Translations under genes and position numbers: made by a program | The notes under the pieces: model-generated | Seen by the model: the letters and a program-made list of their open reading frames with translations, nothing else | What the model was told of the DNA's origin: nothing | Database searches by the model: none | Shown here: positions 17,430 to 47,211 of the stretch, piece by piece | Layout of the letters: every line of letters begins with the position of its first letter | Numbering within the stretch: position 1 is the stretch's first letter | Assembly (NCBI GenBank): GCA_964370965.1 | Contig: CAYJLW010000010.1 | Span: forward strand, 4,227 to 68,226 | Length of the DNA stretch: 64,000 nt | Origin: an uncultured Acidimicrobiia bacterium | Lineage (GTDB): Bacteria > Actinomycetota > Acidimicrobiia > UBA2766 | Direction: 5' to 3'

Positions 17430-17535
17430 GTCGCATGATATCGAGGGAGGGACGCCATCCCCGGGCGGGGGCGGACCGCCCTCGCTCCCGCCCTGGTTCT
17501 TGACCGCCCGGTCAAGAGGTCCATAGCCTGAGACC

Positions 17536-18175: not shown

Positions 18176-20281
18176 TCACGCCCGCAGCGGCATCCGGATC
18201 CCCCGCAGGATGCGGGCGACCTCGTGCATCGTCGTGCGCCCCAGCGAGGCCGCCTGGATGCCCGCGTCCCAGAGGCTGGAGAAGCCCTCCGCGTAGGCGA
18301 TGCGGGCGACGTCGGTGTCCGAAACGCCCCTGCCCAGCATGTCCCTGATCGCATCGCTCACGGGGAGCACCTCATAGAGGCCCATCCGACCACGGAAGCC
18401 GGTCTCGCCGCAGGCGGGACACCCCCGGCCCGCCCGCCAGTCGGCGTCCCCGGGCAGGTCGATGCCGAGCTCGGCGGCGACGTCGACGGGAACGGCGACC
18501 GCCTCGGCGCAGGAGTCACAGACCCGCCGCACGAGGCGCTGGGCCGCGACCAGGGTGACCGCCGAGCCCACCATGTACGGCTCCATACCCATGTCGACGA
18601 GGCGCGTGAGCGTGGCGGGGGCGTCGTTCGTGTGGATGGTGGAGAGGACTATGTGGCCGGTGAGTGCCGCTCGCAGCGCGATGGACGCGGTCTCGTTGTC
18701 CCGCACCTCACCCACCATGACGACGTCGGGATCCTGGCGGAGGACCGCCCGGAGCGCCGCCGGGAACGTGAAGCCGATCTTCTCGTCTATCTGGACCTGC
18801 GTGGCCGCACTGAGATCCCGCTCGATGGGGTCCTCGAGAGTGACGAGGTTGAGCTCGGGCGACGCCACCTCCTCCAGGGCGGCGTAGAGGGTGGTCGTCT
18901 TGCCCGACCCCGTGGGGCCGCTTATGAGCACGAGACCCTGCCGGCCGGTCACGGCCGCCCGCAGCATCTCGAGAGGGGTGCCCCCGAGGCCCGTTGCCGC
19001 GAGCGTGGGGATGCTCTCGGAGCGGTCGACGAGGCGGAGCACGACCTTCTCACCGTACGCCGAAGGCATCACTGACACCCGGGCGTCGAGGATGCGGTCG
19101 CGCAGCTTCAGATGGGCGCGGCCGTCCTGAGGCCGGCGCCGCTCGGCGATGTCGAGCTCCGAGATGATCTTCACCCGACTCACGAGTGCCGGGTGGATGT
19201 CCGAGTCGGCGTGAAAGAGGGGTCGCAGGTGGCCGTCGACCCGGATGCGCATCATGACCCGGTCGGCCTTGGGCTCGATGTGGAGGTCCGACGCCCGCCG
19301 GCGGGCGGCCTCGGCGAGCACCATGTCGAGGAGCTGCTCCGCGCTCGCCTCCGGAGCCCGGGCAGCCCCCTGGCTCATGTCCCCCGCACCGAGACGGGTG
19401 ACCGCCCGGTCGAGCGCGGAGGGGAGAGCGACGGCGGCCTGCACCCTGAGACCGGTGACGATACGGATGTCGTCGAGGCCCACGACGTCGGTGGGATCGG
19501 CCATCGCCACCCGCAACTCGCCGTCGGCGGAGAACTCGAAAGGCACGGCGCGGAGGCGGGCGGCGTCCTCGACGGTGATCGTCTCGCGGGCTTGGCGGTC
19601 GATCACCTTGCTGTCGAGATCGACGAAGGGCACGTGGAGGCGGCGGCCCAGCGCGAACGTGATCTCCTCCTCGCTCACCTTGCCCATCTCGATGAGAACC
19701 GTTCCCAGGCGCCGACGACCCAGGGAGGCCTGCTGGATGCGGAGGGCCTCCATCAGCGTCTCGGTCGTGATCACGTCGTCCTCGACGAGGATCTCCCCGA
19801 GGCGTTTCGCCGTCTCCGGCCGCTCCGGAGCGGAGGCGGGCACCGGCGACGGCCGCGGGGGGCCAGGCAGTTGCGGAGGAGCCGCCACGGATGTCACCGG
19901 GACGGCCGGTCCCGGCGACGGCGTCTCTGGCAGGTACACCCGGTGAGGGATGGGTGCGACGGCCGGAGCTGTGGGAGCACTCCCTGCCGGCGGGCCCGGG
20001 CCCGCAGGAGGGGGCGGGGGCCACACACCCGCCACCGGGGGGGACGCCACCCGAGGGGACGCCGCCGGTGCGGGAGGGGGCGGCGGCGGGGGCGCGGCCA
20101 CCAAGGGGGGCCCAGAGGAGTGGGGCGGGGGGGCCAGCCGCCCGAGGGCATCGAACGCCCCCAAGGCGTCTGCTGCGGAAGGGGCCTGTCGGAACGGTCC
20201 CCCGGCGTCAAAGCGGGAGAAGCACCGGTTGCACCACTGCGCCCCGTCCGGGTTCAAAGCGTCACATGCAGGACATCGCAC
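18176..20281 (-). CDS. GspE/PilB-family secretion ATPase with N-terminal zinc ribbon, Pro-rich linker and GspE_N domain
   Basis: MRCPACDALNPDGAQWCNRCF, then a PPPPPPP-rich linker. Walker A GPTGSGKTT. GspE signatures VGEVRD, His box, and a C-terminal tetracysteine CDSC...CPACG. GTG start. Confidence 0.8.
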   Translation of the reverse strand: MRCPACDALNPDGAQWCNRCFSRFDAGGPFRQAPSAADALGAFDALGRLAPPPHSSGPPLVAAPPPPPPPAPAASPRVASPPVAGVWPPPPPAGPGPPAGSAPTAPAVAPIPHRVYLPETPSPGPAVPVTSVAAPPQLPGPPRPSPVPASAPERPETAKRLGEILVEDDVITTETLMEALRIQQASLGRRRLGTVLIEMGKVSEEEITFALGRRLHVPFVDLDSKVIDRQARETITVEDAARLRAVPFEFSADGELRVAMADPTDVVGLDDIRIVTGLRVQAAVALPSALDRAVTRLGAGDMSQGAARAPEASAEQLLDMVLAEAARRRASDLHIEPKADRVMMRIRVDGHLRPLFHADSDIHPALVSRVKIISELDIAERRRPQDGRAHLKLRDRILDARVSVMPSAYGEKVVLRLVDRSESIPTLAATGLGGTPLEMLRAAVTGRQGLVLISGPTGSGKTTTLYAALEEVASPELNLVTLEDPIERDLSAATQVQIDEKIGFTFPAALRAVLRQDPDVVMVGEVRDNETASIALRAALTGHIVLSTIHTNDAPATLTRLVDMGMEPYMVGSAVTLVAAQRLVRRVCDSCAEAVAVPVDVAAELGIDLPGDADWRAGRGCPACGETGFRGRMGLYEVLPVSDAIRDMLGRGVSDTDVARIAYAEGFSSLWDAGIQAASLGRTTMHEVARILRGIRMPLRA

Positions 20282-20358: not shown

Positions 20359-21540
20359 CTACAGGTCGGCGTCGAGGGCGCGGCGGATCCCCCGGACGGC
20401 CTGGCCGATGCGCTGCTCGTTCTCGACGAGGGCGAAGCGCACGAACCCGTCGCCGCCGGGACCGAAGCCCACCCCCGGGGACACAGCCACCTTGGCCTCC
20501 CGGACGAGGCGCACCGCGAACTCGAGGGACCCGAGGTCGCGATACCGCTCCGGGATGGGCGCCCACACGAACATGGTCCCCTTTGGCCTCTGCACGTCGG
20601 GCCAGCCGATGCGGTCGAGACCGTCGCAGAGGGCGTCCCGACGCACCTTGTAGATGTCGTTGACGACCTTCGGGTAGTCCGACGCCTCGTTCATCGCCAC
20701 GATGGCGGCGATCTGGATGGGCTGGAACGTGCCGTAGTCGAGGTAGGACTTGAGCTTCTGGAGTGCCGCCACGATCTCGGCGTTGCCCACGAGGAACCCG
20801 ACCCGCCACCCCGGCATGGAGAACGACTTCGTGAGCGTGTAGAGCTCCACTCCCACGTCCTTGGCGCCCGGGATCTCGAGCAGGCTGGGCGGCTGGTAGC
20901 CGTCGAAGGACACGTCCGCGTAGGCGAAGTCGTGCACGAGGAGGACGTCGTTCTCCTTGGCGAAGGCCACGAGACGCTCGAAGAAGGACCGGTCGACGCA
21001 GTAGGTCGTGGGGTTGTGGGGGAAGGACGTGATGATCACCCGGGCCCGGGGCCAAGCGCGTTCGTACGCCTCCTCGAGATTGGCGAAGAAGTCCTCGACG
21101 TGGGGACCGAGACCGACCTGGGTGACCTCGGCGCCCGCCAGGAACGGGGCGTAGAGGTGGATCGGATACGACGGCGTGGGGACGATCACGCCGTCACCGG
21201 GTTGGGCGAGCACCCACATGAGGTGCGCGAGTCCCTCCTTGGCGCCGATGGTGACGATCGCCTCGCGGTCCGGGTCGAGCTGCACGCCGAACTTGCGCCC
21301 GTAGAGGTCACAGACGGCCTTGCGCAGCTTCGGGATGCCGCGGCTCGCCGAGTAGCGGTGGTTGCGGGGATTGCGCACCGCCTCGCAGAGCTTGTCGACG
21401 GCGATGTCCGGGGAGGGGATGTCCGGGTTGCCGAAGCCGAGGTCGATGATGTCCGCGCCGTCGCGGCGGGCCTGCAGCTTCAGGGCGTCGACCGTGGCGA
21501 ACACGTAGGGCGGAAGGTTCTGGATGCGCCGGAACTCCAT
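20359..21540 (-). CDS. class I/II PLP aminotransferase, AlaC(YfdZ)-like glutamate-pyruvate aminotransferase
   Basis: [10 protein letters not shown]...[10 protein letters not shown]...SYPIHLYAP...SFPHNPT...[14 protein letters not shown] is collinear with E. coli AlaC. The upstream extension of the annotated 731-aa ORF is a GC-rich frame artefact. Confidence 0.85.
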
Positions 21541-21614
21541 CCGCCCATCGTAACCGACGGGCTCCGCGCCCATGGGCTGGAAGGCGCTCCCCCGGGCCGC
21601 GAGCCCCCGGCGCC

Positions 21615-22367
21615 TCAGCGTTCCCCCGCTCTCAGGAGGTCCACCATCTCGGCCAACGCCGGGAGCTCCGCGTGGTCCACGACGCCGAGCACGAGGTCGT
21701 CCGCCCCCGCTGCCACGTACTCGCCGAGGGCGCCGGCGAGGGCCGCCGGGGTCCCCGAGATGACGCCGGTCCGCGACCCCGCCACGCTCACGTTGCCCCC
21801 CCAGCTCACCGTCCTCCCACTCGCTGCCGCCGCCGTAGCCGCCCGCCGCACCTCCTCCGGCGGAGCGCCCCAGAGGTTGTGCCCGTCGGCGTGGGCGACG
21901 AGGGCCCTCGCCCGCGGGCCGCGCCCCCCCACCCAGACCGTAAGACCGGTCGCCTTCAGCCCCCGGATCGTCGCCAGGGCCAGGGTCGCGCGCTCGTCCG
22001 CACCGGGGTAGGTGATGCCGTAGGAGATGTTCTCGTCCCGCGAGAGACGGTCTGCGATCCCGACGCCGACGACCACGTCGCGCCCCGGGCAGGCGGCCGC
22101 CAGGGTGCGGGCCGCTGCCACGGCCACGGCCGGGGGGCGCAACGTGGACCGCAGCACGAGGGGGCCGAGGCCGATGCGCACGGTTTCGGCGGCCACAGCG
22201 GCGAGCACGGCGGTGGACTCCAGGACGGGACGCTCCCGGTCCCGCCCCAAAGGGAACACGTGGTCGTAGACCGCGACCCTGTCGAAACCGAGCGCCTCCG
22301 CCTCGCGGGCGGCGACGACGAACGCCGCGTCGAACCGGAACTGCGGAAGGCTGACGGCCACGGTCAC
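21615..22367 (-). CDS. luciferase-like (LLM-class) flavin/F420-dependent oxidoreductase
   Basis: [29 protein letters not shown]...[13 protein letters not shown] start 5 nt after the ROK stop. Confidence 0.6.
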
Positions 22368-22372: not shown

Positions 22373-23341
22373 TCAGACGGCCACCCCCGCCGCCCGGAAG
22401 GCCACGAGCGCCGCGCCCACGGCACCGGACCAGGGCCCGAACGCCGCTGCCAGCACGGGCACGTCCGGTCGGAAGGCCGCCCCGCTGAGGCGGGCACCCA
22501 GACGTTCGCGTACAGGACCGAGGACGACGTCCCCGGCGGCGACAACGCCCCCACCCATCACGACACGGGCGGGATCGAGGCACTGCACGAGACCGGCAAG
22601 ACCGATCGCGACCCAGTCCGCGTACTCCGCGACCACGGCGTGGGCGAGGGGATCTCCCGCCTCCGCGGCGGCGACAGCGTGGCGACCGGTGACGGCGGCG
22701 CCGTCACCCCCGGCCAGGTCCAGGATGCGGGCCCCGGCGGGCTCCCCCGCGGCGTCGCGCGCCATGCGGTCCAGAGCCCGCCCGGACGCCACGGCCTCCC
22801 AGTGGCCCCGCTCACCGCAGGCGCACCTGGGGCCCCCCACGTGGACCATCATGTGCCCGATCTCCCCGGCGAACCCGTGCGCCCCCGCGAAAGGTGCGCC
22901 GGCGGCGATGATGCCGCCCCCGATCCCGGTGCCGAGAGTCACCATGAGGAGGTCCCCGCAGCGCTCCCCGGCCCCGAGGTCGTGCTCGGCGAGGGCGGCG
23001 CAGTCGGCGTCGTTGGCGGCAACCGCGTCGAGCCCCGTGCGCGCCGTGATCGCGTCCGTCACGGCTGCGCGGCGCAGCGCCACGTTCGGTCCGTAGACGA
23101 GTTCGCCGCGGTCCCGCTCGACGAGACCGGCCAGTCCCGCCCCCACGCCCACGACGTGGGCGTCACCCGCTCTTTCGAGAGCCGCCGCGGCGGCGGCGCA
23201 CACGCCTTCGAGCTGGCCGGCGGAATCCATTCCCGGTGTCTCGAGGACGATCCGGTCCACGACCGTGCCGTCGACACCCACGAGGGCGGCGCCCGTCTTC
23301 GTCCCGCCCAGGTCGAGACCGATCGAGAGCGGGACGGACAC
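22373..23341 (-). CDS. ROK-family glucokinase
   Basis: [10 protein letters not shown]...[10 protein letters not shown]...zinc motif [10 protein letters not shown]. Confidence 0.8.
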
Positions 23342-23342: not shown

Positions 23343-23702
23343 TCAGTCCCCGGGCCGGGAGAGGCGGACGTCGGCCTTCTTGGCGCCGAGTCCCCTCAGG
23401 ACCCCCTCGAGGCGGAGCTCGCTCTCGCGGATGTCGATGTCGCGCCGGTCGATCATCTTGTCCGTGGTGACGACCGTGAGCTCCACCGCGGTGGCGCCGT
23501 CGAGGACATCGCGCAGGTCGTGGTCCACTCCTCGACTGCCGGATCCGACGACGAGCAGCCAGATCGCCACGACGACCACAGCGACCGCTCCCACCCACCA
23601 GGGGATCTTGAACCCGACGATCGCCCGCCCGACGCTGCGCTCGGATCCCGGCCCGGGCTCCCGCAGGGGACCGGCCCCGGCAGGCGGCTGTTGCGGCTCC
23701 AT
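23343..23702 (-). CDS. small membrane protein, hypothetical
   Basis: Single TM helix WWVGAVAVVVVAIWLLVV. Stop sits next to the ROK GTG start (TGAaGTG). Confidence 0.4.
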   Translation of the reverse strand: MEPQQPPAGAGPLREPGPGSERSVGRAIVGFKIPWWVGAVAVVVVAIWLLVVGSGSRGVDHDLRDVLDGATAVELTVVTTDKMIDRRDIDIRESELRLEGVLRGLGAKKADVRLSRPGD

Positions 23703-23727: not shown

Positions 23728-24864
23728 TCAGAACCGCAGGAGCGCCCCGATGCGTCCCATCACGTCCACGTCCGCAGAATCCCGCAGCATCCGCACGGCG
23801 GCACCCTCGTTCACTGCGGCGTCGATCGCCTCCTCGACGACGTCATCGAGCCATTCGAGCTCCGTGGCGCAACGGTCGCAGGCCGGGCCCACGGCCCGCA
23901 GCGCGCCACACCCCGGACAGCGCCACCCGCCGGTGGCGAAGCCGGCGGAGACGACCAGGGTCTCGACACGGCGATCGGCGAGAGCGTCGAGCGTGCCGGC
24001 GAGACCCACGGTGCCCTTTCGGCTCCCGCCGGCCGCGGAGCGGAGCGCCGCGATGAGGTCCCGCTCCCGGTCGGCCTCCATGGCGGCGTCCAGGGCGTCG
24101 CACGCAGCGACCACGTCCTCGTTGCCGGCACCGGGCCCGCAGGGGATCCGGCCCACGATCCGCCGCCGGACGTCACCCGCCATCACCCGCTCGAGCTCGG
24201 CCACGGTCGACTCCTGACCGCCGAGCACGACGTCACGCGTGCCCTCGCCGTGGACCACGGCAGCGAGGTCGCCCGCCACGTGGGCGAGGTGGCGCACCAC
24301 TTCGTGTTCGCGCGACTGCTGCACCTTGGTGGCGCCCCGATCCTGGTGTCCCATGTCGACGCCCCGGGGCAGGGGGTCGGTCTCCTCTGAGAGGGGCACC
24401 ACTTCGCCGTCGTCGACGACGAGGACCCTGCCGCGCTCCCGGTCCGCGAGGGCGACCGCAAAGCGGTATCCGGCGGCGAGGACCTCCTCAAGAGGCCCGT
24501 TGACAGGCGAGTGGTTGTAGCGGACCTGGCTGCGCACGGGCCTCCGGAGCTCGAAGGTGCGCGTGAACCCGATGGCCTCACAGGAGAACATGGCGAGGCC
24601 CCTCGTGGCGCCCCGGTCCCACCCCGCCAGGAAGCGCTCGCAGCGGTCGAGGTCGGCCTGCGCAGCGACACGCACATCCTTGTCCAGATCCATGGCGTCT
24701 AGCTGCGAGCGACCCCGCTTGAGCGCGAGGCGTGTTTCCTCCTCGAGATCAGTGTGGCGGGGCAGGCGGCGGCCGTCGGTGTCCAAGAACACGCTCACCA
24801 CGAGGTGTCGGCGAGATCGAACAGCGGCCAGCTCCCTGATGTCACCTGCGGTGAGCCGTGGCAT
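23728..24864 (-). CDS. eRF1/Pelota-like (baeRF-type) domain protein with embedded zinc ribbon
   Basis: Size and layout resemble mycobacterial Rv2629-type eRF1-like proteins. CPGCG...CDRC ribbon near the C-terminus. No GGQ motif. Assignment is from memory of the family only. Confidence 0.45.
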   Translation of the reverse strand: MPRLTAGDIRELAAVRSRRHLVVSVFLDTDGRRLPRHTDLEEETRLALKRGRSQLDAMDLDKDVRVAAQADLDRCERFLAGWDRGATRGLAMFSCEAIGFTRTFELRRPVRSQVRYNHSPVNGPLEEVLAAGYRFAVALADRERGRVLVVDDGEVVPLSEETDPLPRGVDMGHQDRGATKVQQSREHEVVRHLAHVAGDLAAVVHGEGTRDVVLGGQESTVAELERVMAGDVRRRIVGRIPCGPGAGNEDVVAACDALDAAMEADRERDLIAALRSAAGGSRKGTVGLAGTLDALADRRVETLVVSAGFATGGWRCPGCGALRAVGPACDRCATELEWLDDVVEEAIDAAVNEGAAVRMLRDSADVDVMGRIGALLRF

Positions 24865-25012
24865 CCAGACCCCCTCGTGCTCTTGATCGCGGAATCAGCG
24901 CGTGCGGCCACACTAGGTGCCCGGACGCGCCCGGACAAGGGTCGTTGGACTCACGCGGGTCCATCCGCAAGCGGAGACATGATGCCCGTGACCACACCGA
25001 CACGGGGGACGC

Positions 25013-27448
25013 CTACGGGAGCGAGTCGTCCACGAGGGCGAGGGCGAGGACCTCGTCGACGTGGGCGGCGAAAACGAGGTCGATCTCGTCCCGGACGAAC
25101 TCCGGGACGTCCACGACGTCCTTGGCGTTGTCCTCGGGCAGGATCACCGTCTTCAGGCCCGCCCGGTGCGCGGCGAGGACCTTCTCCTTCACGCCCCCGA
25201 TGGGCAGGACGCGTCCCCGCAGGGTGATCTCGCCCGTCATGCCCACGCTGCGGCGCACGGCCCGGTCCGACAGTGCCGAGACGAGCGCCGTGGCCATCGT
25301 GATCCCGGCCGAGGGACCGTCCTTGGGCACGGCGCCCGCCGGGACGTGGACGTGCACGTCGTGGGTGTCCGCCCAGTTCGCATCCAGGCCGAGGCGATCG
25401 CCGATGCGCCGGGCATAGGTGAGGGCCGCCCGGGCGGACTCCTGCATGACGTCGCCGAGCTGGCCCGTCAGGGTGAGCTTGCCGGTGCCGGGCACGACCG
25501 ATGCCTCCACGAACAGGACGTCGCCGCCGGCGGCGGTGACCGCGAGACCGGTGGCCATGCCGACCTCGTCGGCCTCGGCGGCGAGGTCGGCCTTGAACTT
25601 CTCCGGGCCCAGGTACTCCCCCACCTTCTCCTCGTCAATGCGGATCGGGGTGTCGGCACCCTCGACGATCTCGCGGGCGGCCTTTCGCACGAGGGCGGCG
25701 AGCTCGCGGTCGAGACTCCGCACACCCGCCTCCCGCGTGTAGGCGTGGATGGTGAGCTTCACCGCCTCGGGGGTGAGCTCGGCCTGCTCGCCCGTGACCC
25801 CGTGGGCCTCGAGCTCCTTGGGCACGAGATAGCGCTCGGCGATCGCCGCCTTCTCCGGCTCGGTGTACCCCGGCAGCGTGATCACCTCGAGGCGGTCGAG
25901 CAGGGGCCGCGGGATGGTGTCTAGGACGTTGGCCGTGGCGATGAACAGGACCCGGGAAAGGTCGAGGGGGACGTCGAGGTAATGGTCGCGGAAGCCGTGG
26001 TTCTGAGCGGGGTCGAGAACCTCCAGCAGAGCCGCCGCCGGGTCGCCCCGGTAGTCGGCGCCCAGCTTGTCGATCTCGTCCAGCATCATCACCGGGTTCA
26101 TGCTCCCGGCACGACGCAAGGCGGCGACGATGCGCCCCGGCATCGCTCCGATGTACGTGCGCCGGTGCCCTCTGAGCTCGGCTTCGTCGCGCACTCCCCC
26201 GAGGGACATCCGCACGAACTCGCGCCCGAGAGCGCGGGCGATGGATTGGCCGAGCGACGTCTTGCCCACGCCCGGGGGACCCACGAAGCAGAGGATGGGG
26301 CCCGCGAGGTCGCTCTTGAGCTGCCGCACGGCGAGGAACTCCAGGATGCGCTCCTTGGGCTTCTCCAGGCCGTAGTGGTCCTCGTCCAGGATCTCCCTGG
26401 CGCCGGCGACGTCACCGGAGTCCTCGGTCACAACCCCCCAAGGCACGGCGAGCAGCCAGTCGAGGTAGCTGCGGATGACGGAGTGCTCGGGCGATGCGGG
26501 TGGGACCTTCTCGAGGCGCTTCAACTCGCGGAGCGCTTCGTCCCTGGCCTCCTGGGGCATGACGGAGCCCTCGACCTGGGCGCGCAGGTCGGCGACCTCG
26601 GCAGTCTCGTCGTCCTCGCCCAGCTCCTTGCGGATGGCGTCGAGCTGGCGACGGAGGAGGAACTCACGCTGCTGCTGGTCGAGCTCCCCCTGCACCTGCT
26701 CGTTGATCTTCGAGCCCATCTCGAGGAGCTCGAGCTCACGCGCCAGGATGCGGAGGATCTCCTCTAGGCGGTCGGCCACGTCCGCTGTGGCGAGGAGCTC
26801 CTGGCGTTTCTCGGTGTCCATGTTGATGTTGGAGGCGAGGAAGTCCGCCAGGACCTCGGGATCGGTGACGTTCAGCGCCGCCGTCACGAGCTGCTCGGGG
26901 AGGTACGGTGCCAGCTCGACCATCCGTTGGAAGGCCGTGAGGACGCTGCGGCGGGTCGCCTCGACCCGGGGACCTTCGGCTCCCGTGGTCTCCAGGCGGG
27001 CCACCCGAGCCCGGAAGTACGGCTCGGTCTCGACGACCTCATCTATGCGGATGCGGCCCACACCCTCGATGACGACGCGCAGGGATCCGTCCGGGAAGCG
27101 GAACATCTGGATGACCCGCGCCAGCGTCCCGACGTCGTGGAGGTCCGCTGACGTGGGTTCCTCGACGGAGGAGTCCCGCAGGGCGACCACGGCGAGGAGC
27201 TTCTCGTCGTCGCCGCCGCCGAGCACGTCCTCTATGAGGTGCTTCGACTTCGGCCGGCCCACCATGACGGGGGCGACGATCTCGGGGTAGACGACGGTGT
27301 CGCGCAGCGGGAGGAGGGCGACGACCTCAGGCGTCTCGACCAGGTCGTCGCTCCCCGGTTCCCCGCCGCCCACGGGCACGGCTTCGGGGGCGCCGGCATC
27401 GCTGCCGGCAACGGGGATTCCGCCGCGCGTCTCGACGGTGTCGTCCAT
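25013..27448 (-). CDS. lon: ATP-dependent Lon protease
   Basis: LPLRDTVVYPE (LonN), Walker A GPPGVGKTSLG, LDEIDK, protease domain PKDGPSAGITMATALVSAL. The annotated 1575-aa ORF runs through upstream genes in one frame, which is an artefact. Confidence 0.9.
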   Translation of the reverse strand: MDDTVETRGGIPVAGSDAGAPEAVPVGGGEPGSDDLVETPEVVALLPLRDTVVYPEIVAPVMVGRPKSKHLIEDVLGGGDDEKLLAVVALRDSSVEEPTSADLHDVGTLARVIQMFRFPDGSLRVVIEGVGRIRIDEVVETEPYFRARVARLETTGAEGPRVEATRRSVLTAFQRMVELAPYLPEQLVTAALNVTDPEVLADFLASNINMDTEKRQELLATADVADRLEEILRILARELELLEMGSKINEQVQGELDQQQREFLLRRQLDAIRKELGEDDETAEVADLRAQVEGSVMPQEARDEALRELKRLEKVPPASPEHSVIRSYLDWLLAVPWGVVTEDSGDVAGAREILDEDHYGLEKPKERILEFLAVRQLKSDLAGPILCFVGPPGVGKTSLGQSIARALGREFVRMSLGGVRDEAELRGHRRTYIGAMPGRIVAALRRAGSMNPVMMLDEIDKLGADYRGDPAAALLEVLDPAQNHGFRDHYLDVPLDLSRVLFIATANVLDTIPRPLLDRLEVITLPGYTEPEKAAIAERYLVPKELEAHGVTGEQAELTPEAVKLTIHAYTREAGVRSLDRELAALVRKAAREIVEGADTPIRIDEEKVGEYLGPEKFKADLAAEADEVGMATGLAVTAAGGDVLFVEASVVPGTGKLTLTGQLGDVMQESARAALTYARRIGDRLGLDANWADTHDVHVHVPAGAVPKDGPSAGITMATALVSALSDRAVRRSVGMTGEITLRGRVLPIGGVKEKVLAAHRAGLKTVILPEDNAKDVVDVPEFVRDEIDLVFAAHVDEVLALALVDDSLP

Positions 27449-27602
27449 GAGGGCAGTGTAGTGATCCTCCCCGCCTCTCCCGACAGACGCATCTGGACTT
27501 GAGCGTTGTGCTGTCAACTTTTCTTCCAATCCGCGAGAAACATCGCCCGCCTCGGTGACAACACCGTCCCCGGGGCCGTTTCTTCCGCGGAGTCCCCTTG
27601 CG

Positions 27603-28217
27603 TCACCCCAGCGTGATGCGCTGCACCTTGGCGGCGCTTGCGCCCTGGGTGCGTCCGAGCGCAGTCTCGAGCCCCTCGAGAAGGGAGCGGGCGGCCGCTG
27701 TGAGCTCCTGGGCCGCCGTGAGGAGATGGGCCATCGTTTCCGGCCGGGCGCCGCGCGCCTCGGAGAAGAGCGCCCCGATCGGGCAGGCGTAGCACTCGGC
27801 CCCCTGGCCGCCCGCAACCCCTGGCGACGCCCGTCGCCCTCCGGCAGGCGGGGGAGCGCCGGCGCCTCCCGGCGGGCCTCCGGCCCCCGTCGCGGCGGTG
27901 CCGCCGAAGCGGGACGACATCGCGTCCCAGCCCCCCAGGAGGCTCCACGCCGCGGAGGCGGCCTCGGAGGCATCAGGGGCCCCGGGAAGCTGCTCACCGC
28001 CCACCTCGTCGAACGCCGGGACCTCGACCGGGGCGTCCCCGCCCTCGCCACCTCCGGGGATCGCCTGGAACAACGGATTGCGCGCCCGGCGGGCCCCGCC
28101 CCGGTGACGCCCGGGCCGCTCCGGCTGGGGCCCGCCCCCGAGACCGGCCCGAACGGGTGGGGACGGCTCACCCCACGCGGACGCGCCCGGCTGTCCACGG
28201 CCCTGCGGGAAGGACAT
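27603..28217 (-). CDS. Gly/Pro-rich low-complexity protein, hypothetical
   Basis: ORF between the ArsA-like gene and lon. C-terminal part (AECYACPIGALFSEARG...LLEGLETALG) looks protein-like. Weak. Confidence 0.3.
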   Translation of the reverse strand: MSFPQGRGQPGASAWGEPSPPVRAGLGGGPQPERPGRHRGGARRARNPLFQAIPGGGEGGDAPVEVPAFDEVGGEQLPGAPDASEAASAAWSLLGGWDAMSSRFGGTAATGAGGPPGGAGAPPPAGGRRASPGVAGGQGAECYACPIGALFSEARGARPETMAHLLTAAQELTAAARSLLEGLETALGRTQGASAAKVQRITLG

Positions 28218-28260
28218 CCCCTCGGAGGAGCGCTGCCCCTGCGAGGCGACTTCCTCGGGC

Positions 28261-29448
28261 TCAGGCAGACGCAGCATCGGCAGCTCCGAAACACACAACG
28301 AGACGGCCGTCCTGGAGTGACGCGCTCGTGATGTCGCGCCGCGTGAGGCTCTGGGGGAGCAACATCGTCCGTTTGTGGGGACCGACAGTCACGAAGAGCT
28401 GGTCGTCGCGCCTGGTGACGTCGACCTCGTCGCGGGATGCGAACGGCAGCCAGATCGACACGACGTAGTCCCCCCCCTCGAGAGAGACGCGCAGCGGCTC
28501 CAGGCTGCGGTCGAGGACAGCGAGAGGGTCGATGCCCTCGTAGAGCTCGACGGCGAAACGCCGCAGCCTCTCGACCCCCACGACCTCGGAGTCGAAGAGC
28601 CGGCTGCGCAGCGCCGGGAGGGGTGAGAACGCCTGCTCGATGTCCTCCAGGTGAGCGGCCTGCGTCTCCTTCCACGCCGTGAAGTACGGATCGACGACCT
28701 CCTCCGGCAGGATGCGATTCGTCACCGTGGCGTCGACCCGGTATCCGAAGAGCGCCAGATACGTGTAGAGGCGTCGCGCCTCGGCGATCACCATGCGTTC
28801 TGGTGTGAGCACGAGCCGCATGGACGTGGTCTCGGGATCCGACAGGAGGGCGCGCACACCTTCGAGACGGGCGTACATCTCGTCGACGGCCTCGAAGACG
28901 TCGTCGTCCGCCATTGGAGGCAGGCTCGGAACCCTGTTCCACACCGGGCGGGCCGCACGGGCGATGCGACGGCCCACGGGGAAGAGCCGTTCCATGGCCC
29001 AGGACAGGATGTCGGGCAGGCTGAGGAGGCGGATCGTCTCCGCCGTGGGAGCGCAGTCGACGACGATGAGGTCGAAGTTGCCGGTGTCTGCGTAGTCCTT
29101 GATGTCGGTGAGGGCGAAGAGCTCGTCCATGCCCGGAAGCACGGAGAGCTCTTCTGCGGCGAGACCGTGCATCCCCGACCAGTCCAGCAGGGTCACGAGA
29201 TGGCGCTGGATGTCCCCCCAGGTCTCCTCGAGTCGCTCCTGGGCATCGACCTGCACCGCCCAGAGGTCCCCGGAGATGAGCTCGGGAGCCCCGCCGATGC
29301 GGACGTCGAAGGCGTCGCCCAGGCTGTGGGCGGGGTCGGTGGAGAGCACGAGCACAGAAAGCCCGGAATCGGCCGCCGCCAGGGCGGTCGCCGCCGCCGT
29401 GGTCGTCTTCCCCACACCGCCCTTGCCGCTGAACAGGAGAATGCGCAC
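28261..29448 (-). CDS. ArsA/Get3-family anion-transporting ATPase homologue
   Basis: RILLFSGKGGVGKTTTAAATAL...VLVLSTDPAHSLGDAF. GTG start with GGAGGAAAGG RBS. Confidence 0.8.
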   Translation of the reverse strand: MRILLFSGKGGVGKTTTAAATALAAADSGLSVLVLSTDPAHSLGDAFDVRIGGAPELISGDLWAVQVDAQERLEETWGDIQRHLVTLLDWSGMHGLAAEELSVLPGMDELFALTDIKDYADTGNFDLIVVDCAPTAETIRLLSLPDILSWAMERLFPVGRRIARAARPVWNRVPSLPPMADDDVFEAVDEMYARLEGVRALLSDPETTSMRLVLTPERMVIAEARRLYTYLALFGYRVDATVTNRILPEEVVDPYFTAWKETQAAHLEDIEQAFSPLPALRSRLFDSEVVGVERLRRFAVELYEGIDPLAVLDRSLEPLRVSLEGGDYVVSIWLPFASRDEVDVTRRDDQLFVTVGPHKRTMLLPQSLTRRDITSASLQDGRLVVCFGAADAASA

Positions 29449-29523: not shown

Positions 29524-30033
29524 CTACGGCCTGCGGTCTGCCTCTCCCGCGTCGTCGGCGGCGTCCCCTCGCATCGGCCAGGCGCAGTAGCGGGCGCTGT
29601 GGACACCCGCGAGGCCTGGGGCGAAGACGGGCACGAGGACTCCGAAAGCCATGGCGGGCACGCCCACGACGAGCGGTTCGGGATCCCTGTTCGCCAGCGC
29701 CGCACCGAGACCCACGACGCAGGCCAACCCGAAACACCACTGGAACACCGCGCGGTCACGGCGTCCGGCGAAGCCGCCGAGGAAGAGCCCCGTGGCCCGC
29801 ACACCCACGCCGCTGCGCAACGCGCGGGCGCCCGAGAGCACGATGGCCGCCACGAACGCCGCCCCGCCGGCGAGAAAGAGGGCTGCGTCCACGCTCACGA
29901 GCACGGGTCGGATGCTCTTGGCGGCCAAGGCCGCGAGGGAGAGCACGACGAAGACGGACGTCCCGGCAGCACAGAGCCAGACGAGCCAGGCCCCACCCTG
30001 GGCCGGGGACGGGAGTCGCTCCCCTTCAACCAC
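29524..30033 (-). CDS. polytopic membrane protein, hypothetical
   Basis: Four or five hydrophobic helices. Probable GTG start that overlaps the upstream gene stop by 8 nt. Confidence 0.35.
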   Translation of the reverse strand: MVEGERLPSPAQGGAWLVWLCAAGTSVFVVLSLAALAAKSIRPVLVSVDAALFLAGGAAFVAAIVLSGARALRSGVGVRATGLFLGGFAGRRDRAVFQWCFGLACVVGLGAALANRDPEPLVVGVPAMAFGVLVPVFAPGLAGVHSARYCAWPMRGDAADDAGEADRRP

Positions 30034-30832
30034 GAGGAGCGGCGAGGCCGACCAGGAGAGCCATGAGAGCGGAGGCCACGAGCACGACGACGACGCTGCA
30101 CGCCACCCAGAACAGCGCACGCTCCTTCAGGAGCGCGGCATCCGGCCGGCCGGGGGCCACGCGGGAGGCATCGATACCCGACAACACCCAGACGGCGCAG
30201 CCCACCGCGGCCAAGAGGTAGCGCATGAGCCCGACCGCACCGCTGCCCGGGAAACCGGCCGCCGCCACGAGGCTGAGGACGACGAGAACGGCCCGACCCG
30301 CTGCCTGCGCACGCTGGTGCAGATACCACTGCCCACCCCCGGGCACAACGGACGCCAGGAGAGCCACACGGGGGTTGCCCGCCCGAACGGTGGGACGGGT
30401 GCGGATCTCCGAGAACAGCGAAGCGCCGCACGCCCGGCATGTCGTGTCTGCGATCGCCTGCGCGGACCCGCACACCCGACACACCCAGCCCGGGCGGCCG
30501 TCGACCCGGCAGGTCTCGTGCTCGCCGATGCGCCGGCCGGTGCGTTCCACGGCGACGTCGGCCTGCACGACCGGGGGCCCCGGCTCCACGCGTCCGGCCG
30601 CCGGGAGGGAGTCCGTCTGCACTTGCAGGCCCACGCCGCCCGGGCCGGGCACGACGCTGATGCGGGAGAGGGCGTCCCAGGCGTCCTGGGCCGCAGCGGA
30701 CGAGGGCGCCCCCGCCCGCATCGGCAGGGGGCCAGGATCGGCCCGCGACTCCGGGGCGCGGAAGGGCGCGTGGCAACGCTGGCACCACTGCGCACTCTCG
30801 GAGTTGCGCGCTCCACAGGACAGGCAGATCAC
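30026..30832 (-). CDS. membrane protein with two N-terminal zinc ribbons
   Basis: CLSCGARNSESAQWCQRCH and CRVCGSAQAIADTTCRACG, followed by TM helices. GTGA overlap with the upstream SRPBCC-like gene. Confidence 0.5.
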   Translation of the reverse strand: MICLSCGARNSESAQWCQRCHAPFRAPESRADPGPLPMRAGAPSSAAAQDAWDALSRISVVPGPGGVGLQVQTDSLPAAGRVEPGPPVVQADVAVERTGRRIGEHETCRVDGRPGWVCRVCGSAQAIADTTCRACGASLFSEIRTRPTVRAGNPRVALLASVVPGGGQWYLHQRAQAAGRAVLVVLSLVAAAGFPGSGAVGLMRYLLAAVGCAVWVLSGIDASRVAPGRPDAALLKERALFWVACSVVVVLVASALMALLVGLAAPRG

Positions 30833-31326
30833 CGCGGGGCCTCCATCTCTCTCTTCAGGCCGGAGAGGCCCCGCCAGCCGAGTTGGCGCAGCCACGCCAG
30901 CAGACGCCGCTGGTCCCGTGGGGGCTCGGCGCGCACCCTCCAGAACAGCGACACGAGAGACCACTCACGCCAAGCCCTCACGTACCACTCGACCTCGGCC
31001 TCGAGCGGGCGTCGGGACAGCGCCAGGCCGACGCAGGGATCCCTGTGGCCCCGCCAGTCCATCCACAGACCGGCCCCGGTCTCGCGCCGGCGGAGGTCGG
31101 AGCACACGGCCTCGACGTCCAGGCCCGCCGCCCCGCACAGGGCCCGCACCCGCCAACTGTCCCCGACGCCGAGTCCGCCCGTGGTGACCTTGTGGTCGAG
31201 GGTCCGCACACCGCGCCACCACGCCACCCAGGCGACGGGATCGGCGAGGGCGTCCACAACCTCCCCTGGAGCGGCCCGCACGAAGGCGGTGTCCGCCGAG
31301 TGGAGCGGCTCACCCATGTCGATCAC
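30829..31326 (-). CDS. hypothetical protein, possibly SRPBCC-like
   Basis: ORF coupled to fadD (ATGA overlap). Family assignment is tentative. Confidence 0.4.
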   Translation of the reverse strand: MIDMGEPLHSADTAFVRAAPGEVVDALADPVAWVAWWRGVRTLDHKVTTGGLGVGDSWRVRALCGAAGLDVEAVCSDLRRRETGAGLWMDWRGHRDPCVGLALSRRPLEAEVEWYVRAWREWSLVSLFWRVRAEPPRDQRRLLAWLRQLGWRGLSGLKREMEAPR

Positions 31327-33095
31327 GTGTACATGGCCTCTATCTCGTCCCCGTAGTTGTCCGCGATCTGCCGCCGACGCACTTTCAGGGTGGGCGTCAC
31401 CTCTCCTGCGTCCTGGGAGAAATCGTGGGGAAGGATCGTGAACTCCTTGATGGATTCGACATGTGAGAGCGTGGAGTTGACACGGTCGACGGCTTTCTGG
31501 ACGAGGGCGCGCACCTCAGGTGTCTGGCTGAGGGCGGCGAGGTCGTCCGGCAGGTCCTTGTCCTTGGCCCACGGTCCCACGACGTCTTCGTCGAGAGTGA
31601 TGAGCGCCGAGACGAACTTGCGGGCGTCGCCGATGACGACGGACTGGCTGATGTACTTGTCGGCCTTCAGCTTCGACTCGATCTCCGAGGGCGAGATGTT
31701 CTTGCCCCCGGCCGTGATGATGAGGTCCTTCTTGCGATCCGTGATGCGCAAGTAGCCGTCCTCGTCGAACTCGCCCACGTCGCCGGAGTGGAGCCAGCCG
31801 TCCACGACGGTCTCGGCCGTGGCCTCGGGGTTCTTGAAGTAGCCCGCGAACACGTTGCCCCCGCGCACGAGGATCTCGCCGTCCTCGGCGATCTTCACGT
31901 CACAGCCCGGGATCGGCGGACCCACCGTGCCGATCTTGATCTTCTCCGGCGGGTTCAGCGACGTGGGGCCCGTGTCCTCGGTCTGGCCGTACACCTCGGC
32001 GACGGGGAGACCGATCGCGTGGAAGAACACCAAGGTCTCTCTGGTGATCGGCGCAGCGCCGCTCACCAGGGCCGTCACCTCGTCAAGGCCGAGCTGATGA
32101 CGCACCTTCGAGAGCACGACCCGGTCGAGGACGGGGTGGAGGAGGCCGTCGAGGAAGCCGGGCCGGGCACCCGTCTGCCTGGCCTCGACGACACGGTGGC
32201 CCATCTCGACGGCGGCGTTCACGAGCTTCCCCTGCAGGCCGGTCATCTCGGCGAAGCGCCCCTCGAGGGCCACCTGGAACTTCTCGTAGAGCCGGGGGAC
32301 GGCGAAGAAGACCGTCGGCCGGCAGGCGCCGAGGTCGTCCCTCAGGGTCGGGACGCTGGAGAACCAGGTCTCGCCTCCCCGCGAGATCATCATGTAGTGG
32401 CTCACCATGCGCTCCGCGATGTGGGCCAGCGGGAGGAACGAGAGGGTGCGCATCGTGGGCGGCCGCAGGACCTGGGAGAGCGACCCGCAGGTCCACACGA
32501 TGTTGTCATGGGTGAGCATGGCGCCCTTCGGCGGTCCGGTGGTCCCTGACGTGTAGATCAGACAGGCGAGGTCCTCCGGGGTGATCGCGTCGCAGGCGGA
32601 GTCGTACACGGCCGTGTCACTGGCGTCGAGCTCAGCGCCCCGGGAGACGAGTTCCTCGTAGGTGGCGTCGCCCCCGCCGTCTTCGATCGTGATCACCTTC
32701 TCCAGCTTCGGGAGCTTGTCGCGGACTTCGTCGACCTTGGCCCGCTGCTCGCCGTTCTCGACGAAGACGACCTTGGCGTCGGAATGGTCCAAGACGTACT
32801 CCACCTGCGGCGGGGAGTTCGTGTGGTACACGGGAACGGCAGTGGCGCCGGTGACGAGGGTGGCGAGATCGATGACGTGGTACTCGGCCCGGTTGTAGGA
32901 GAGCACGGCGACGCCGTCTCCCTTGCCCACGCCCAGGTCCATGAGCGCGCGGGCGAGAGCCCGCACGTTGCGCCCGTAGTCGGTCCAGCTCGTCGCCTGC
33001 CACACACCCGTGTCGTCCTGTGTGCACAGCGCCGCACGGTCGCGCAACTCGTGCACGCGGGCGTTGAACAGCCCGATGATCGTGTTCTCACTCAC
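31323..33095 (-). CDS. fadD: long-chain fatty-acid--CoA ligase (AMP-dependent synthetase)
   Basis: IYTSGTTGPPKGAML, GYGQTE, ITDRKKDLIITAGGKNISP. Confidence 0.85.
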   Translation of the reverse strand: MSENTIIGLFNARVHELRDRAALCTQDDTGVWQATSWTDYGRNVRALARALMDLGVGKGDGVAVLSYNRAEYHVIDLATLVTGATAVPVYHTNSPPQVEYVLDHSDAKVVFVENGEQRAKVDEVRDKLPKLEKVITIEDGGGDATYEELVSRGAELDASDTAVYDSACDAITPEDLACLIYTSGTTGPPKGAMLTHDNIVWTCGSLSQVLRPPTMRTLSFLPLAHIAERMVSHYMMISRGGETWFSSVPTLRDDLGACRPTVFFAVPRLYEKFQVALEGRFAEMTGLQGKLVNAAVEMGHRVVEARQTGARPGFLDGLLHPVLDRVVLSKVRHQLGLDEVTALVSGAAPITRETLVFFHAIGLPVAEVYGQTEDTGPTSLNPPEKIKIGTVGPPIPGCDVKIAEDGEILVRGGNVFAGYFKNPEATAETVVDGWLHSGDVGEFDEDGYLRITDRKKDLIITAGGKNISPSEIESKLKADKYISQSVVIGDARKFVSALITLDEDVVGPWAKDKDLPDDLAALSQTPEVRALVQKAVDRVNSTLSHVESIKEFTILPHDFSQDAGEVTPTLKVRRRQIADNYGDEIEAMYT

Positions 33096-33180: not shown

Positions 33181-34188
33181 ATGGCCATGGGCACATGCAT
33201 CCTCCGGCGGATGCGCCACTATGCTGCCCGCGCCGTGACCCGCGCCGCCCACCTCGCCGCCCCGCCGCCACTCGTCGTCGTGAGCGGTCTGCCCCGCAGC
33301 GGCACGAGCTGGGTGGCCAAGGTGCTCGCCTTCACACCCGGCTACACGTACTACCGCGAACCGGACAACTCCGACCACGTCGCGGGCGCCCGGCGGGAGT
33401 TCCGCTGGCTCTACCTCCCCAGTGGACGCCACGACCCTGCATGGGACACCCACATGCGCCGTGCCTTGCGCGGCCGAGTGGCGACCCCGTTCACCATGCA
33501 GGAGGACCCCGGCCCCCTCATGGCGCGCCTCCCTCTCCGTGTGGCGGGAAAGCTGGGGGCGACGGCCCCGTTCCTCTACCTGCCCAAGCGCCGCACGCTC
33601 GTGAAGCTCGTGCATGCCAACCTCGCTCTCGAGTGGATCGCAGACGAGTTCCCCGCCGCCCGCCAGGTCCACGTGATGAGACATCCCTGTGGCACCTTCG
33701 CGAGCTGGGCGCGACTCGGCTGGGAGCCCGAACCCCGGCGCCTGCTGGGCGACGACCGCCTCGTGGGAGACCATCTGGCGCCATTCGTGGACGTGATCGA
33801 GGGCGCCGGGACCTTCTGGCAACGGGCAGGGGCCCTCTGGGGCGCCATCTACACGGTCGTCCATGCCCAACTCCCCCGCCACCAGGACTGGTGTTTCGTC
33901 CAGCACGAGTGGCTCTGCGCGGACCCCGTGACCAGATGTCGGCGCCTCTTCGACGCGCTCGGCCTCCGGTGGACGAAGGAGACCGCGTCGTTCCTGCGGG
34001 AATCCGACCGTCCCGGCGACGACGCCGCCTACTCCCTGCGGCGCTCCGCCGCCGCCGAGATCGACAAGTGGAAGAGCACCGTCGACCCGTCCGACGTCGC
34101 CGCCTGCCGCGAGGTCGTGGAGGCGTTCGACCTCCCGTACTACCGCGACTTCGAACCCGTTCCGGGAACCCCCGCCTGGGCCACCTGA
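33181..34188 (+). CDS. sulfotransferase-family protein
   Basis: PAPS-binding 5'PSB-like motif VVSGLPRSGTSW near the N-terminus. Confidence 0.6.
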   Translation: MAMGTCILRRMRHYAARAVTRAAHLAAPPPLVVVSGLPRSGTSWVAKVLAFTPGYTYYREPDNSDHVAGARREFRWLYLPSGRHDPAWDTHMRRALRGRVATPFTMQEDPGPLMARLPLRVAGKLGATAPFLYLPKRRTLVKLVHANLALEWIADEFPAARQVHVMRHPCGTFASWARLGWEPEPRRLLGDDRLVGDHLAPFVDVIEGAGTFWQRAGALWGAIYTVVHAQLPRHQDWCFVQHEWLCADPVTRCRRLFDALGLRWTKETASFLRESDRPGDDAAYSLRRSAAAEIDKWKSTVDPSDVAACREVVEAFDLPYYRDFEPVPGTPAWAT

Positions 34189-34195: not shown

Positions 34196-35338
34196 TCACA
34201 CGACCGCGCCGAAGCGCACGTCCATCCACTCGCGGAAGCGGCGCGACTGGTGATCCCATGTGAGCTCGGCGACGGCCCGGTCCCGACCGGCGCGCCCGGC
34301 CGCCTCCGCGGCCCGGGGGTCGGCGAGATACCCCCGCAGGGCCTCCACCACCCCCTTGACGTCCGTGGCATCGACGACACGTCCCGTCTCGCCGTCCACG
34401 ACGGCGTCGGTAGCGCCCCCGGACCGGCCCGCCACAACCGGGATCCCGCACGCCCCTGCCTCCACGAAGACGATCCCGAACCCCTCCGCCTCGATGCCTC
34501 CCCAGCGATCGTGGCACAGCATGGCGAAGACGTTCCCCGCCTGGTACAGCGTCACGAGATCCTCGTCGGGCACCCGACCCAGGAGGCGGACCGCGCCGCC
34601 GAGGTCCCTGTCCGCGACCAGACGCTCGAGACGACCCGCCTCGCGACCGGTACCCCCGATGACGACCTGCAGATCGGGAACGTCGTGGCGAAGCTCTGCG
34701 GTCGCCTCGACGAGCAGGTGCATGCCCTTGCGCGGAACGAGGCGGGACACGGACACTACCGTCGGTCGATTCGCCGCGAGGCCGAGGCGCTCCCGGGCCG
34801 CCACCCGGTCGCCCGGCGCGAAACGATCCGTGTCCACACCCGGCCACACCTCCAGCAGCGGCGGTGTCAGGCTCCCGGCCACTCGCCGCGCCCAACCGGC
34901 CACCCAGGGGCCCATGGCGACGACGCCACCGGCACCGGCGAGGACCCGCCGGAGGAGCCGTCGGGTCCCCGGGAGACGCCCGGGCACGCTCACGTCCGCT
35001 CCGTAGACCACCGTCACGTAGGGGACGCCGTGGCGCCGCGGCACGGACCCCAGCAGGGAGAGCGGGAGCGCGGAACCGAACACGACCACGTCGGGACGCA
35101 CCTCGCGCACAAGAGCATCGAGACCGACCGCGAGCGCCGGCGTGGGCAGCATCGTGGCGGACGCAGTGCGCTCCACGCGGTACGGGAGGGCGGCATCGTG
35201 ACCGGCGGCGTCGGCGTGCGCGGCGGCCAGGACAACGAGGTTGCAGGGATCCAGAGCCCCGAAGAGATGCGCCTGGACGACCTGGATGCCGCCCACCTTG
35301 GGTGGGAAGTCGTTGGTGACGAGCAGCACACGGGGCAC
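34196..35338 (-). CDS. GT4-family glycosyltransferase (PimA/PimB-like)
   Basis: RVLLVTNDFPPKVGGIQ...EGFGIVFVEAGACGIPVVAGRSGG. Confidence 0.8.
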   Translation of the reverse strand: MPRVLLVTNDFPPKVGGIQVVQAHLFGALDPCNLVVLAAAHADAAGHDAALPYRVERTASATMLPTPALAVGLDALVREVRPDVVVFGSALPLSLLGSVPRRHGVPYVTVVYGADVSVPGRLPGTRRLLRRVLAGAGGVVAMGPWVAGWARRVAGSLTPPLLEVWPGVDTDRFAPGDRVAARERLGLAANRPTVVSVSRLVPRKGMHLLVEATAELRHDVPDLQVVIGGTGREAGRLERLVADRDLGGAVRLLGRVPDEDLVTLYQAGNVFAMLCHDRWGGIEAEGFGIVFVEAGACGIPVVAGRSGGATDAVVDGETGRVVDATDVKGVVEALRGYLADPRAAEAAGRAGRDRAVAELTWDHQSRRFREWMDVRFGAVV

Positions 35339-47207: not shown

Positions 47208-47211
47208 CTCC

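Follow-up and report, generated by a model that had tools for sequence, protein, structure and literature searches.

Ribosome hibernation factors of the Balon type have been described in P. urativorans (Balon), M. smegmatis (MSMEG_1130), and M. tuberculosis (Rv2629) (Helena-Bueno et al., Nature 2024, PMC10901736). Their binding to the ribosomal A site does not depend on mRNA; they hold the peptidyl-transferase center inert and inhibit translation (PMC10901736). Proteins of baeRF-1 family 10 have been proposed to act as release or rescue factors (Burroughs and Aravind 2019, PMC6514570), and linkage to Lon or ArsA is reported in neither paper. Here, we analyzed a 64,000-nucleotide stretch of contig CAYJLW010000010.1 from an uncultured Acidimicrobiia bacterium (positions 4,227 to 68,226; hereafter, the window), in which genes for an ArsA/Get3-family ATPase, a LonA protease, and a Balon-like protein with the aeRF1 fold lie close together on the minus strand. 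An original prediction, made from the sequence alone, had read this linkage as a module for stalled translation or membrane-protein triage. Our data point elsewhere: the cluster is probably a segment of conserved, Acidimicrobiia-like backbone with one variable slot, in which the three genes came to be adjacent through gene gain and loss rather than through a triage pathway.

The adjacency of the Lon and Balon-like genes, and with it the complete set of three, was found in this species only, being absent from 80 loci surveyed around Balon-like genes, 10 close lineages surveyed around ArsA, and 80 loci surveyed around Lon. The original prediction had itself given an adjacency confined to one genome as grounds for its rejection, and what the neighborhood comparison returned is an arrangement unique to this species. 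The pairwise linkage behind the prediction held in part: ArsA and the Balon-like gene occur together in about half of 59 fully visible loci, and ArsA and Lon in 5 of 10 lineages, these pairs recurring in different clades, and Lon and the Balon-like gene pair nowhere else in the loci surveyed. Every member also occurs without the others (the Balon-like gene without ArsA in 30 loci, ArsA without the Balon-like gene in 10 lineages, and Lon without the Balon-like gene in 5). Because the three genes have been gained and lost independently within a conserved backbone, the data do not support a dedicated module.

Gene order in the window and its relatives

Since the GC content of the window is 71%, genes were called from third-position GC (GC3 frame plot) and then checked against Pfam and NCBIfam; independent public gene calls for the identical contig gave the same genes with the same lengths. 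GC3, Pfam, and the public calls bear out the three named genes and the Gly/Pro-rich gene as real and co-directional, at the minus-strand positions originally given. The features of the region, in the order of minus-strand transcription, are as follows (ORF, open reading frame; HMM, hidden Markov model; HAIR, HspR-associated inverted repeat; nt, nucleotides).

34196-35329, minus strand: GT4 glycosyltransferase, upstream backbone anchor (Glycos_transf_1/GT4 in the public calls; 55 to 64% identity in close relatives)
33181-34188, plus strand: sulfotransferase, window-specific insertion (Pfam Sulfotransfer_3, E 4.6e-13)
31323-33095, minus strand: FadD-like long-chain acyl-CoA ligase (Pfam AMP-binding and AMP-binding_C_3; position-matched orthologues at 56 to 66% in all close relatives)
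30829-31326, minus strand: 165-amino-acid conserved protein with no assigned family (orthologues at 47 to 59% in close relatives; overlaps each neighbor by 4 nt)
30026-30832, minus strand: 268-amino-acid protein with N-terminal zinc ribbon(s) and C-terminal transmembrane segments (sub-threshold Zn_Ribbon_1/DZR; public call; orthologues at 32 to 46%)
29524-30033, minus strand: 169-amino-acid polytopic membrane protein, backbone member (matched at E 1e-16 by an HMM from 52 relatives)
28261-29448, minus strand: single-domain ArsA/Get3-family ATPase with a C-terminal HSP20-like domain (Pfam ArsA_ATPase, E 1e-87; ArsA_HSP20, E 9e-20)
27603-28277, minus strand: 224-amino-acid Gly/Pro-rich partner of ArsA with a conserved C-terminal helix (ATG at 28277; conserved overlap with ArsA; homologues by tblastn and HMM)
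27498-27518, no strand assigned: GTTGACA-N7-GCTCAAG, an inverted repeat weakly resembling HAIR, located 70 nt upstream of the start codon (ATG) of Lon (10/14 matches)
25013-27448, minus strand: canonical LonA protease (NCBIfam TIGR00763 and full Pfam architecture)
23728-24864, minus strand: Balon-like aeRF1-fold protein, 378 amino acids (Pfam baeRF_family10; AlphaFold2 [AF2] model and Foldseek; phmmer; family profile)
23343-23702, minus strand: 119-amino-acid predicted membrane ORF with one hydrophobic segment, window specific (high GC3; in the public calls)
22373-23341, minus strand: ROK-family kinase (glucokinase-like), downstream backbone anchor (Pfam ROK, E 2e-61)
21615-22361, minus strand: luciferase-like monooxygenase (Pfam Bac_luciferase, E 1.9e-14; found in 17/80 loci surveyed around Balon-like genes)
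20359-21573, minus strand: class I/II aminotransferase, backbone member (Pfam Aminotran_1_2, E 8e-51; 80 to 84% identity in close relatives)

The genes upstream of ArsA are tightly coupled, as originally described: fadD and the 165-amino-acid gene meet at -4 nt, the latter and the zinc-ribbon gene at -4 nt, and the zinc-ribbon and 169-amino-acid genes at -8 nt, followed by 75 nt to ArsA. Their identification as fadD and zinc-ribbon membrane proteins stands, but the label "SRPBCC-like" was not confirmed: the 165-amino-acid protein has no Pfam or NCBIfam match, and hhalign against the genuine SRPBCC gene that relatives have in the corresponding place gave E 0.043 over 30 residues. The gaps among the named genes, originally put at about 45 to 150 bp, measure -17 nt between ArsA and the small partner, 154 nt from the partner to Lon, and 148 nt from Lon to the Balon-like gene. 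Farther downstream, the intervals shrink to 25 nt (Balon-like gene to 119-amino-acid ORF), 1 nt (ORF to ROK), 11 nt (ROK to monooxygenase), and 41 nt (monooxygenase to aminotransferase). Spacing leaves Lon on its own and groups the Balon-like gene tightly with the metabolic genes downstream of it, not with Lon.

A scan of species-representative genomes yielded 339 relatives of the Balon-like protein, nearly all from metagenome-assembled genomes of Acidimicrobiia; the loci of the best 80 of these 339 were inspected with 10-kb flanks and probed by tblastn with every window protein. ArsA and GT4 were counted in the 40 loci with at least 8 kb of upstream flank, and ROK and aminotransferase in the 65 loci with enough flank. 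GT4 lies upstream of the Balon-like gene in 40/40 loci, the ROK kinase immediately downstream in 60/65, and the aminotransferase nearby in 64/65. ArsA is present in 24/40, or, by fully visible loci, in 29 of 59 and absent in 30; Lon is found near the Balon-like gene in 0/80. In a tree built from the Balon-like proteins, at least five separate clades retain the Balon-like gene but have no ArsA cassette, indicating that the cassette was lost independently at least five times while that gene was kept. The fullest form of the block reads QueG-like, GT4, transmembrane protein, SRPBCC, ArsA, small protein, large coiled-coil protein, Balon-like gene, and ROK, where "QueG-like" is a putative label given by eye to a large Fe-S/Cys-rich protein. 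Shorter forms are nested within this one, down to a minimal form in which GT4 is followed directly by the Balon-like gene.

The gap between the Balon-like gene and ROK, as defined by tblastn, has a median of about 30 nt in over 90% of these loci (L001-L080). Where relatives lack the Balon-like gene, ROK adjoins or overlaps its upstream neighbor, whichever gene that is (Lon, for instance, in L163 and L164). The coiled-coil protein (700 to 1,000 amino acids) occurs in at least about 19 Acidimicrobiales loci, only where ArsA and its small partner are both present, and lies between that partner and the Balon-like gene, at the place taken by Lon in the window; examples are L008:7788-9929, L006:6854-9871, L015:7736-9883, and L044:7445-9952. 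It has no Pfam family and no homologue in the window, and its two ends resemble those of a degenerate SMC/RecF-type ATPase (N-terminal MRLLQL...FHP..TVV.GL and C-terminal PLVIDDALAG...VQVIYLSDDP).

Seen from ArsA, the arrangement is conserved at closer range. The window ArsA is 100% identical on at least 24 public contigs with the same neighbors, and the protein search also identified a closer clade at 62 to 70% ArsA identity. Ten lineages of that clade (64 to 70% ArsA identity), chosen as informative for the slot and confirmed by tblastn, all keep the window backbone of GT4, FadD, the 165-amino-acid protein, the zinc-ribbon and transmembrane proteins, ArsA, the small partner, ROK, and aminotransferase. 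Synteny with close relatives even runs past the cluster, through TetR, Hydrolase_4, acyltransferase, FGGY kinase, and PFK genes. What varies is the slot between the small partner and ROK, which is empty in 4/10 lineages and holds a divergent HSP20 gene only in 1/10 (the closest relative, at 70% ArsA identity), HSP20 plus Lon in 3/10, and Lon alone or with unrelated genes in 2/10; the Balon-like gene is present in 0/10. These HSP20 genes (L163:11765-12181, L164:11551-12009, L170:11715-12125, and L177:2138-2566) directly follow the ArsA partner in divergent orientation, adjoin Lon in three of the four lineages and occur without it in one, and have no counterpart in the window. Approached from Lon, the nearest 80 Lon loci among metagenome contigs (47 to 59% identical) contained ArsA or a Balon-like gene within 10 kb in 0/80 cases.

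The simplest account of these patterns would be a vertically inherited housekeeping backbone with one permissive slot. Its order would be GT4, FadD in some members, a small conserved protein, membrane proteins, the ArsA-like ATPase with a translationally coupled small partner, the slot, ROK, and aminotransferase; in the window, the slot would hold two independently distributed stress genes, those for LonA and the Balon-family protein. Several observations weigh against this account. ArsA accompanies Lon in 5 of the 10 close lineages and, at greater distance, is found with the Balon-like gene in about half of the loci, and slot occupants are repeatedly stress related (HSP20, Lon, and Balon-like), so that a thematic or regulatory link is possible. 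The sampling consists of class-level relatives, with the best 80 of 339 inspected. Finally, all of these genes point the same way, and neither of the gaps flanking Lon yielded a terminator, so that read-through co-transcription is possible.

The ArsA-like ATPase, Lon, and their regulation

The ArsA-like ATPase shares with ArsA, Get3, and TRC40 the deviant Walker A P-loop (GKGGVGKTT) and membership in NCBIfam family TIGR00345 (261 bits against a cutoff of 135). While the arsenical pump ArsA is a tandem ATPase with a metalloid-binding Cys triad encoded in an ars operon, the window protein has a single domain of about 300 amino acids (98 bits on TIGR04291 against a cutoff of 650) and no such triad, and no ars genes are among its neighbors. 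It contains two Cys residues and, unlike Get3 with its CxxC zinc-mediated dimer, no CxxC. Two further features set it apart from all three comparison proteins, namely, the C-terminal HSP20-like domain and an obligatory, overlapping small partner gene. Assignment as BagA or BagB was rejected, as its scores fall far under their cutoffs. The 169-amino-acid transmembrane protein encoded upstream was likewise considered as a dedicated Get3-type receptor partner and rejected because it persists in loci where ArsA is absent.

The ATG of the small partner (28277) overlaps the ArsA stop codon by 17 nt, an overlap that is identical in all close relatives, and the two genes always co-occur in the Balon-side loci read. 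By tblastn, the 224-amino-acid partner is 27 to 52% identical to the 120- to 224-amino-acid homologues of close relatives, and an HMM of the 85- to 91-amino-acid Acidimicrobiales form has this ORF as its top match in the six-frame translation of the window (E 1.7e-4). Partner length ranges from 85 to 224 amino acids through a variable Gly/Pro-rich middle; one helix (HL..AA.E...AAR.L) is kept, and the C-terminal end VQ.I.(V/L)(S/G) is conserved, the window copy ending in ...VQRITLG. The partner of one relative (L163:11169-11708) has a sub-threshold match to DUF5304 (E 0.0016). The ArsA-HSP20 protein and its partner thus appear to constitute a separate two-gene unit, for which family membership would suggest a role in chaperoning or targeting.

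The window Lon is a canonical LonA. It scores 937 bits on NCBIfam TIGR00763 (endopeptidase La; cutoff, 608), has the complete Pfam architecture (LON_substr_bdg, AAA, Lon_lid, and Lon_C), and carries the Walker A motif GPPGVGKT and a Ser-Lys dyad (Ser in GPSAG and Lys in GGVKEK). The position-matched Lon proteins of five close lineages are 65 to 70% identical to it and are therefore orthologous. The TetR and Hydrolase_4 genes are separated by a gene for polyphosphate kinase 2 (16626-17690 on the minus strand), some 7 kb away from Lon; this gene looks like a window-specific insertion, because its two neighbors are adjacent in close relatives L163, L170, and L173. A connection between polyphosphate and Lon is known from E. 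coli.

In actinomycetes, lon is under HspR/HAIR control, as in Streptomyces. The window Lon resembles these regulated enzymes in architecture, in catalytic motifs, and in having a HAIR-like repeat upstream, but the operator match is poor (10/14 to CTTGAGT-N7-ACTCAAG; shuffle P of 0.027), and a placement between ArsA and ROK is peculiar to the window's clade. Similar or better versions of the repeat precede the orthologous Lon genes of L163 (P of 0.006) and of L164 and L170 (about 0.05 each), and none was found upstream of those of L161 or L172; elsewhere, the window contains ten matches of equal quality, and among the ORFs scanned in the window, none was identified as HspR. A -10-like TACACT upstream of Lon is positioned for a leaderless start, and a search there for CIRCE (controlling inverted repeat of chaperone expression) was negative. 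Scans for sigma-70 promoters and intrinsic terminators gave nothing over shuffle expectation and are uninformative in an actinobacterium with 71% GC; RNA folding of both Lon-flanking gaps (z of -0.8 to +0.9) gave no evidence for or against a terminator. Because gaps of about 150 bp lie on both sides, Lon probably has its own promoter, and the repeats make HspR/HAIR-type heat-shock control a suggestive candidate.

Since the slot often, though not only, holds stress genes, a looser reading than a single pathway has to be weighed, in which the slot next to ArsA-HSP20 and its partner preferentially gathers stress genes with a shared physiological theme (proteostasis plus ribosome preservation) and shared regulation, for example, by heat shock or stationary phase. 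Its occupants in relatives (the divergent HSP20, Lon, and Balon-like genes) and the HAIR-like repeats upstream of Lon in the window and three relatives are consistent with this, as are published Balon neighborhoods that include Hsp20 and chaperones (PMC10901736). However, the slot also holds a GH76 hydrolase, two histidine kinases, and the coiled-coil protein; it is empty in four lineages; and the HAIR-like matches are individually weak and equaled elsewhere in the window. We regard such a stress neighborhood as possible but rather unlikely compared with the permissive slot.

The Balon-like protein

The protein originally described as eRF1/Pelota-like does have the aeRF1 fold but is more precisely Balon-like. 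It matches Pfam baeRF_family10 (PF18854) at 56.4 bits, above the gathering cutoff of 27.1, and the public record carries the same annotation. An AF2 model built on 24 homologues (predicted local distance difference test score of 89) found as its top Foldseek matches the Balon chains on 70S ribosomes 8v9l_z, 8v9j_z (template-modeling [TM] score of 0.71), 8v9k_z, and 8rd8_B, the best being MSMEG_1130 (E 4.5e-24, TM score of 0.71), with Rv2629 and P. urativorans Balon. The TM score against aRF1/eRF1 was only about 0.5, and that against Pelota was lower. Sequence comparisons agree: full-length phmmer matches Balon at E 1.2e-7, and the family profile matches MSMEG_1130 at E 5.2e-32 versus E 1.4e-13 for aRF1, a difference of about 18 orders of magnitude. 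The match to NCBIfam MSMEG_1130_fam_RHF runs end to end (E 2.8e-10) but reaches 39.8 bits against an equivalog cutoff of 480, and other Balon models (the MSMEG_1130, Rv2629, and AOC03_06830 families were tested) gave 29.9 against 320 and 21.5 against 330 bits. With scores this far under the equivalog cutoffs, the protein is therefore a distant relative and not an equivalog. A Pfam PT-VENN (pre-toxin) match to residues 185 to 222, in the long helix of the M domain after the catalytic-loop region, scores 23.2 bits against a gathering threshold of 20.3 and was judged spurious, probably a compositional false positive, as there is no toxin context.

Likeness to the Balon factors extends to the three-domain aeRF1-like architecture, to a length within the 360- to 420-amino-acid range of the family, and to the absence of the release-factor motifs. 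At the position aligned to the GGQ of eRF1, the family consensus is RGE, and the window protein reads M-G-H; Gln occurs there in 3 of 24 sequences. The N domain contains neither NIKS nor NIKL, whether in the window protein or in its homologues. A predicted long, flexible loop of about 18 low-confidence residues (residues 160 to 178) would occupy the place equivalent to the lasso loop and bL27 trap in the M domain of Balon.

There are also differences. Identity to the described factors is only 22 to 23%. The C domain has a four-Cys zinc ribbon (C316, C319, C329, and C332), as in aRF1, at the site of Balon's beta-hairpin insertion for binding EF-Tu, where MSMEG_1130 has no Cys. The HP motif, an N-domain insertion that binds the decoding center, could not be recognized at the aligned position, which reads ...VNGPL... 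in the window protein versus ...FIHPL... in MSMEG_1130 and ...VGQL... in the family consensus, the papers giving no residue numbers for this motif; an NHSP sequence lies five residues upstream of VNGPL. Published Balons are sporadic, with RaiA, Hsp20, or transporters as neighbors, whereas the window clade occupies one class-wide syntenic locus beside GT4, ArsA, and the ROK kinase. Against baeRF-1 family 10 as described by Burroughs and Aravind, the Pfam match and the presence of the N, M, and C domains agree, but the conserved catalytic-loop Gln reported for that family is not conserved in the window clade, and the reported linkage to HPF was not seen among the genes identified here.

Because of the fold, the full-length homology to MSMEG_1130 and Rv2629, and the absence of GGQ and NIKS, ribosome hibernation is the best-supported predicted function. 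The protein would most likely bind the ribosomal A site without hydrolyzing peptidyl-tRNA, parking ribosomes in stress or stationary phase, and the original placement of this gene among quality-control factors for stalled translation is not supported. Two points count against this assignment: it rests on remote homology, as the identity and bit scores above indicate, and the window clade keeps the aRF1-like zinc ribbon, with the window protein having a Gln of its own (GHQ) in the catalytic-loop region.

The zinc ribbon and the GHQ, together with the Pfam score over cutoff, the family profile's match to aRF1, and the conserved Gln noted in family 10 (PMC6514570), would favor an active release or rescue factor. 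The GHQ of the window protein is, however, not conserved in the 24-sequence alignment, the residue aligned to the catalytic Gln of eRF1 being mostly Glu, His, or Asp among the 23 homologues; NIKS is missing; and both profile and structure lie much nearer MSMEG_1130 than aRF1. A release activity is therefore unlikely, and hibernation remains the preferred prediction.

Functional coupling, other window genes, and implications

A more specific proposal than the stress neighborhood would join these predictions into a heat-shock-controlled island in which Lon and the Balon-like protein are functionally coupled, an adaptive fusion of proteostasis and ribosome hibernation. If this were true, Lon could, for example, clear away the hibernation factor, or ribosomal proteins left unprotected, at entry into or exit from dormancy, and the ArsA-HSP20 pair would hold aggregation-prone clients. 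We consider such coupling very unlikely. Likewise very unlikely is the original proposal that the ATPase, Lon, and the eRF1-fold protein form a dedicated module resolving stalled translation and triaging released, possibly membrane-destined chains. In its favor, the genes are co-directional with no terminators detected, each of the three families has links to proteostasis or the ribosome, ArsA has its HSP20-like domain, membrane proteins lie immediately upstream, and pairwise adjacencies recur. Against it, the triple and the Lon/eRF1-like pair are confined to this species among some 100 related loci and a further 80 around Lon; the three genes are distributed independently of one another; Lon stands alone between its gaps of about 150 bp, with a candidate heat-shock-type operator upstream; the eRF1-fold protein lacks NIKS and a GGQ-type catalytic Gln; the solved structures nearest to it are those of hibernation factors, which prevent peptide release; and the upstream membrane protein persists without ArsA.

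The sulfotransferase gene, on the plus strand, breaks the otherwise co-directional GT4-FadD junction; it is missing at this position in all relatives and has no tblastn match in any related locus. The 119-amino-acid ORF has no family match and, by tblastn, a homologue in none of about 100 related loci. At 18176-20281 on the minus strand lies a T2SSE/GspE-type secretion ATPase; in the extended ORF, a CxxC zinc-ribbon-like motif at the N terminus is combined with a long Pro-rich linker, and the public gene call, which has a later start, gives at least 555 amino acids with MshEN and T2SSE. A stretch of lower GC (65 to 69%) at 44997-55774 on the minus strand encodes an ABC transporter of the branched-chain amino-acid type whose permease and ATPase are fused, three Peripla_BP_6 paralogues in tandem, and a 1,053-amino-acid ORF without any Pfam family.

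The M. tuberculosis gene order plsC-Rv2183c-Rv2184c (ArsA-like)-TB16.3-fadD15-pimB' may represent the same ancestral block; a literature search on Rv2183c-Rv2185c gave nothing usable.

Lon, the ArsA-like ATPase, and the Balon-like protein are ordinary members of known families, and the current understanding of Lon, Get3/ArsA, and ribosome rescue is unchanged. With three apparent quality-control genes in a row read as a probable permissive slot in a conserved backbone, the guilt-by-association argument for their common function is removed, and the eRF1/Pelota-like gene is relabeled as a probable Balon-type hibernation factor. Acidimicrobiia have a class-wide, zinc-ribbon-bearing relative of Balon at one syntenic locus, immediately upstream of a ROK kinase, which is useful both for annotating these mostly uncultured bacteria and for studying the evolution of Balon from aRF1.

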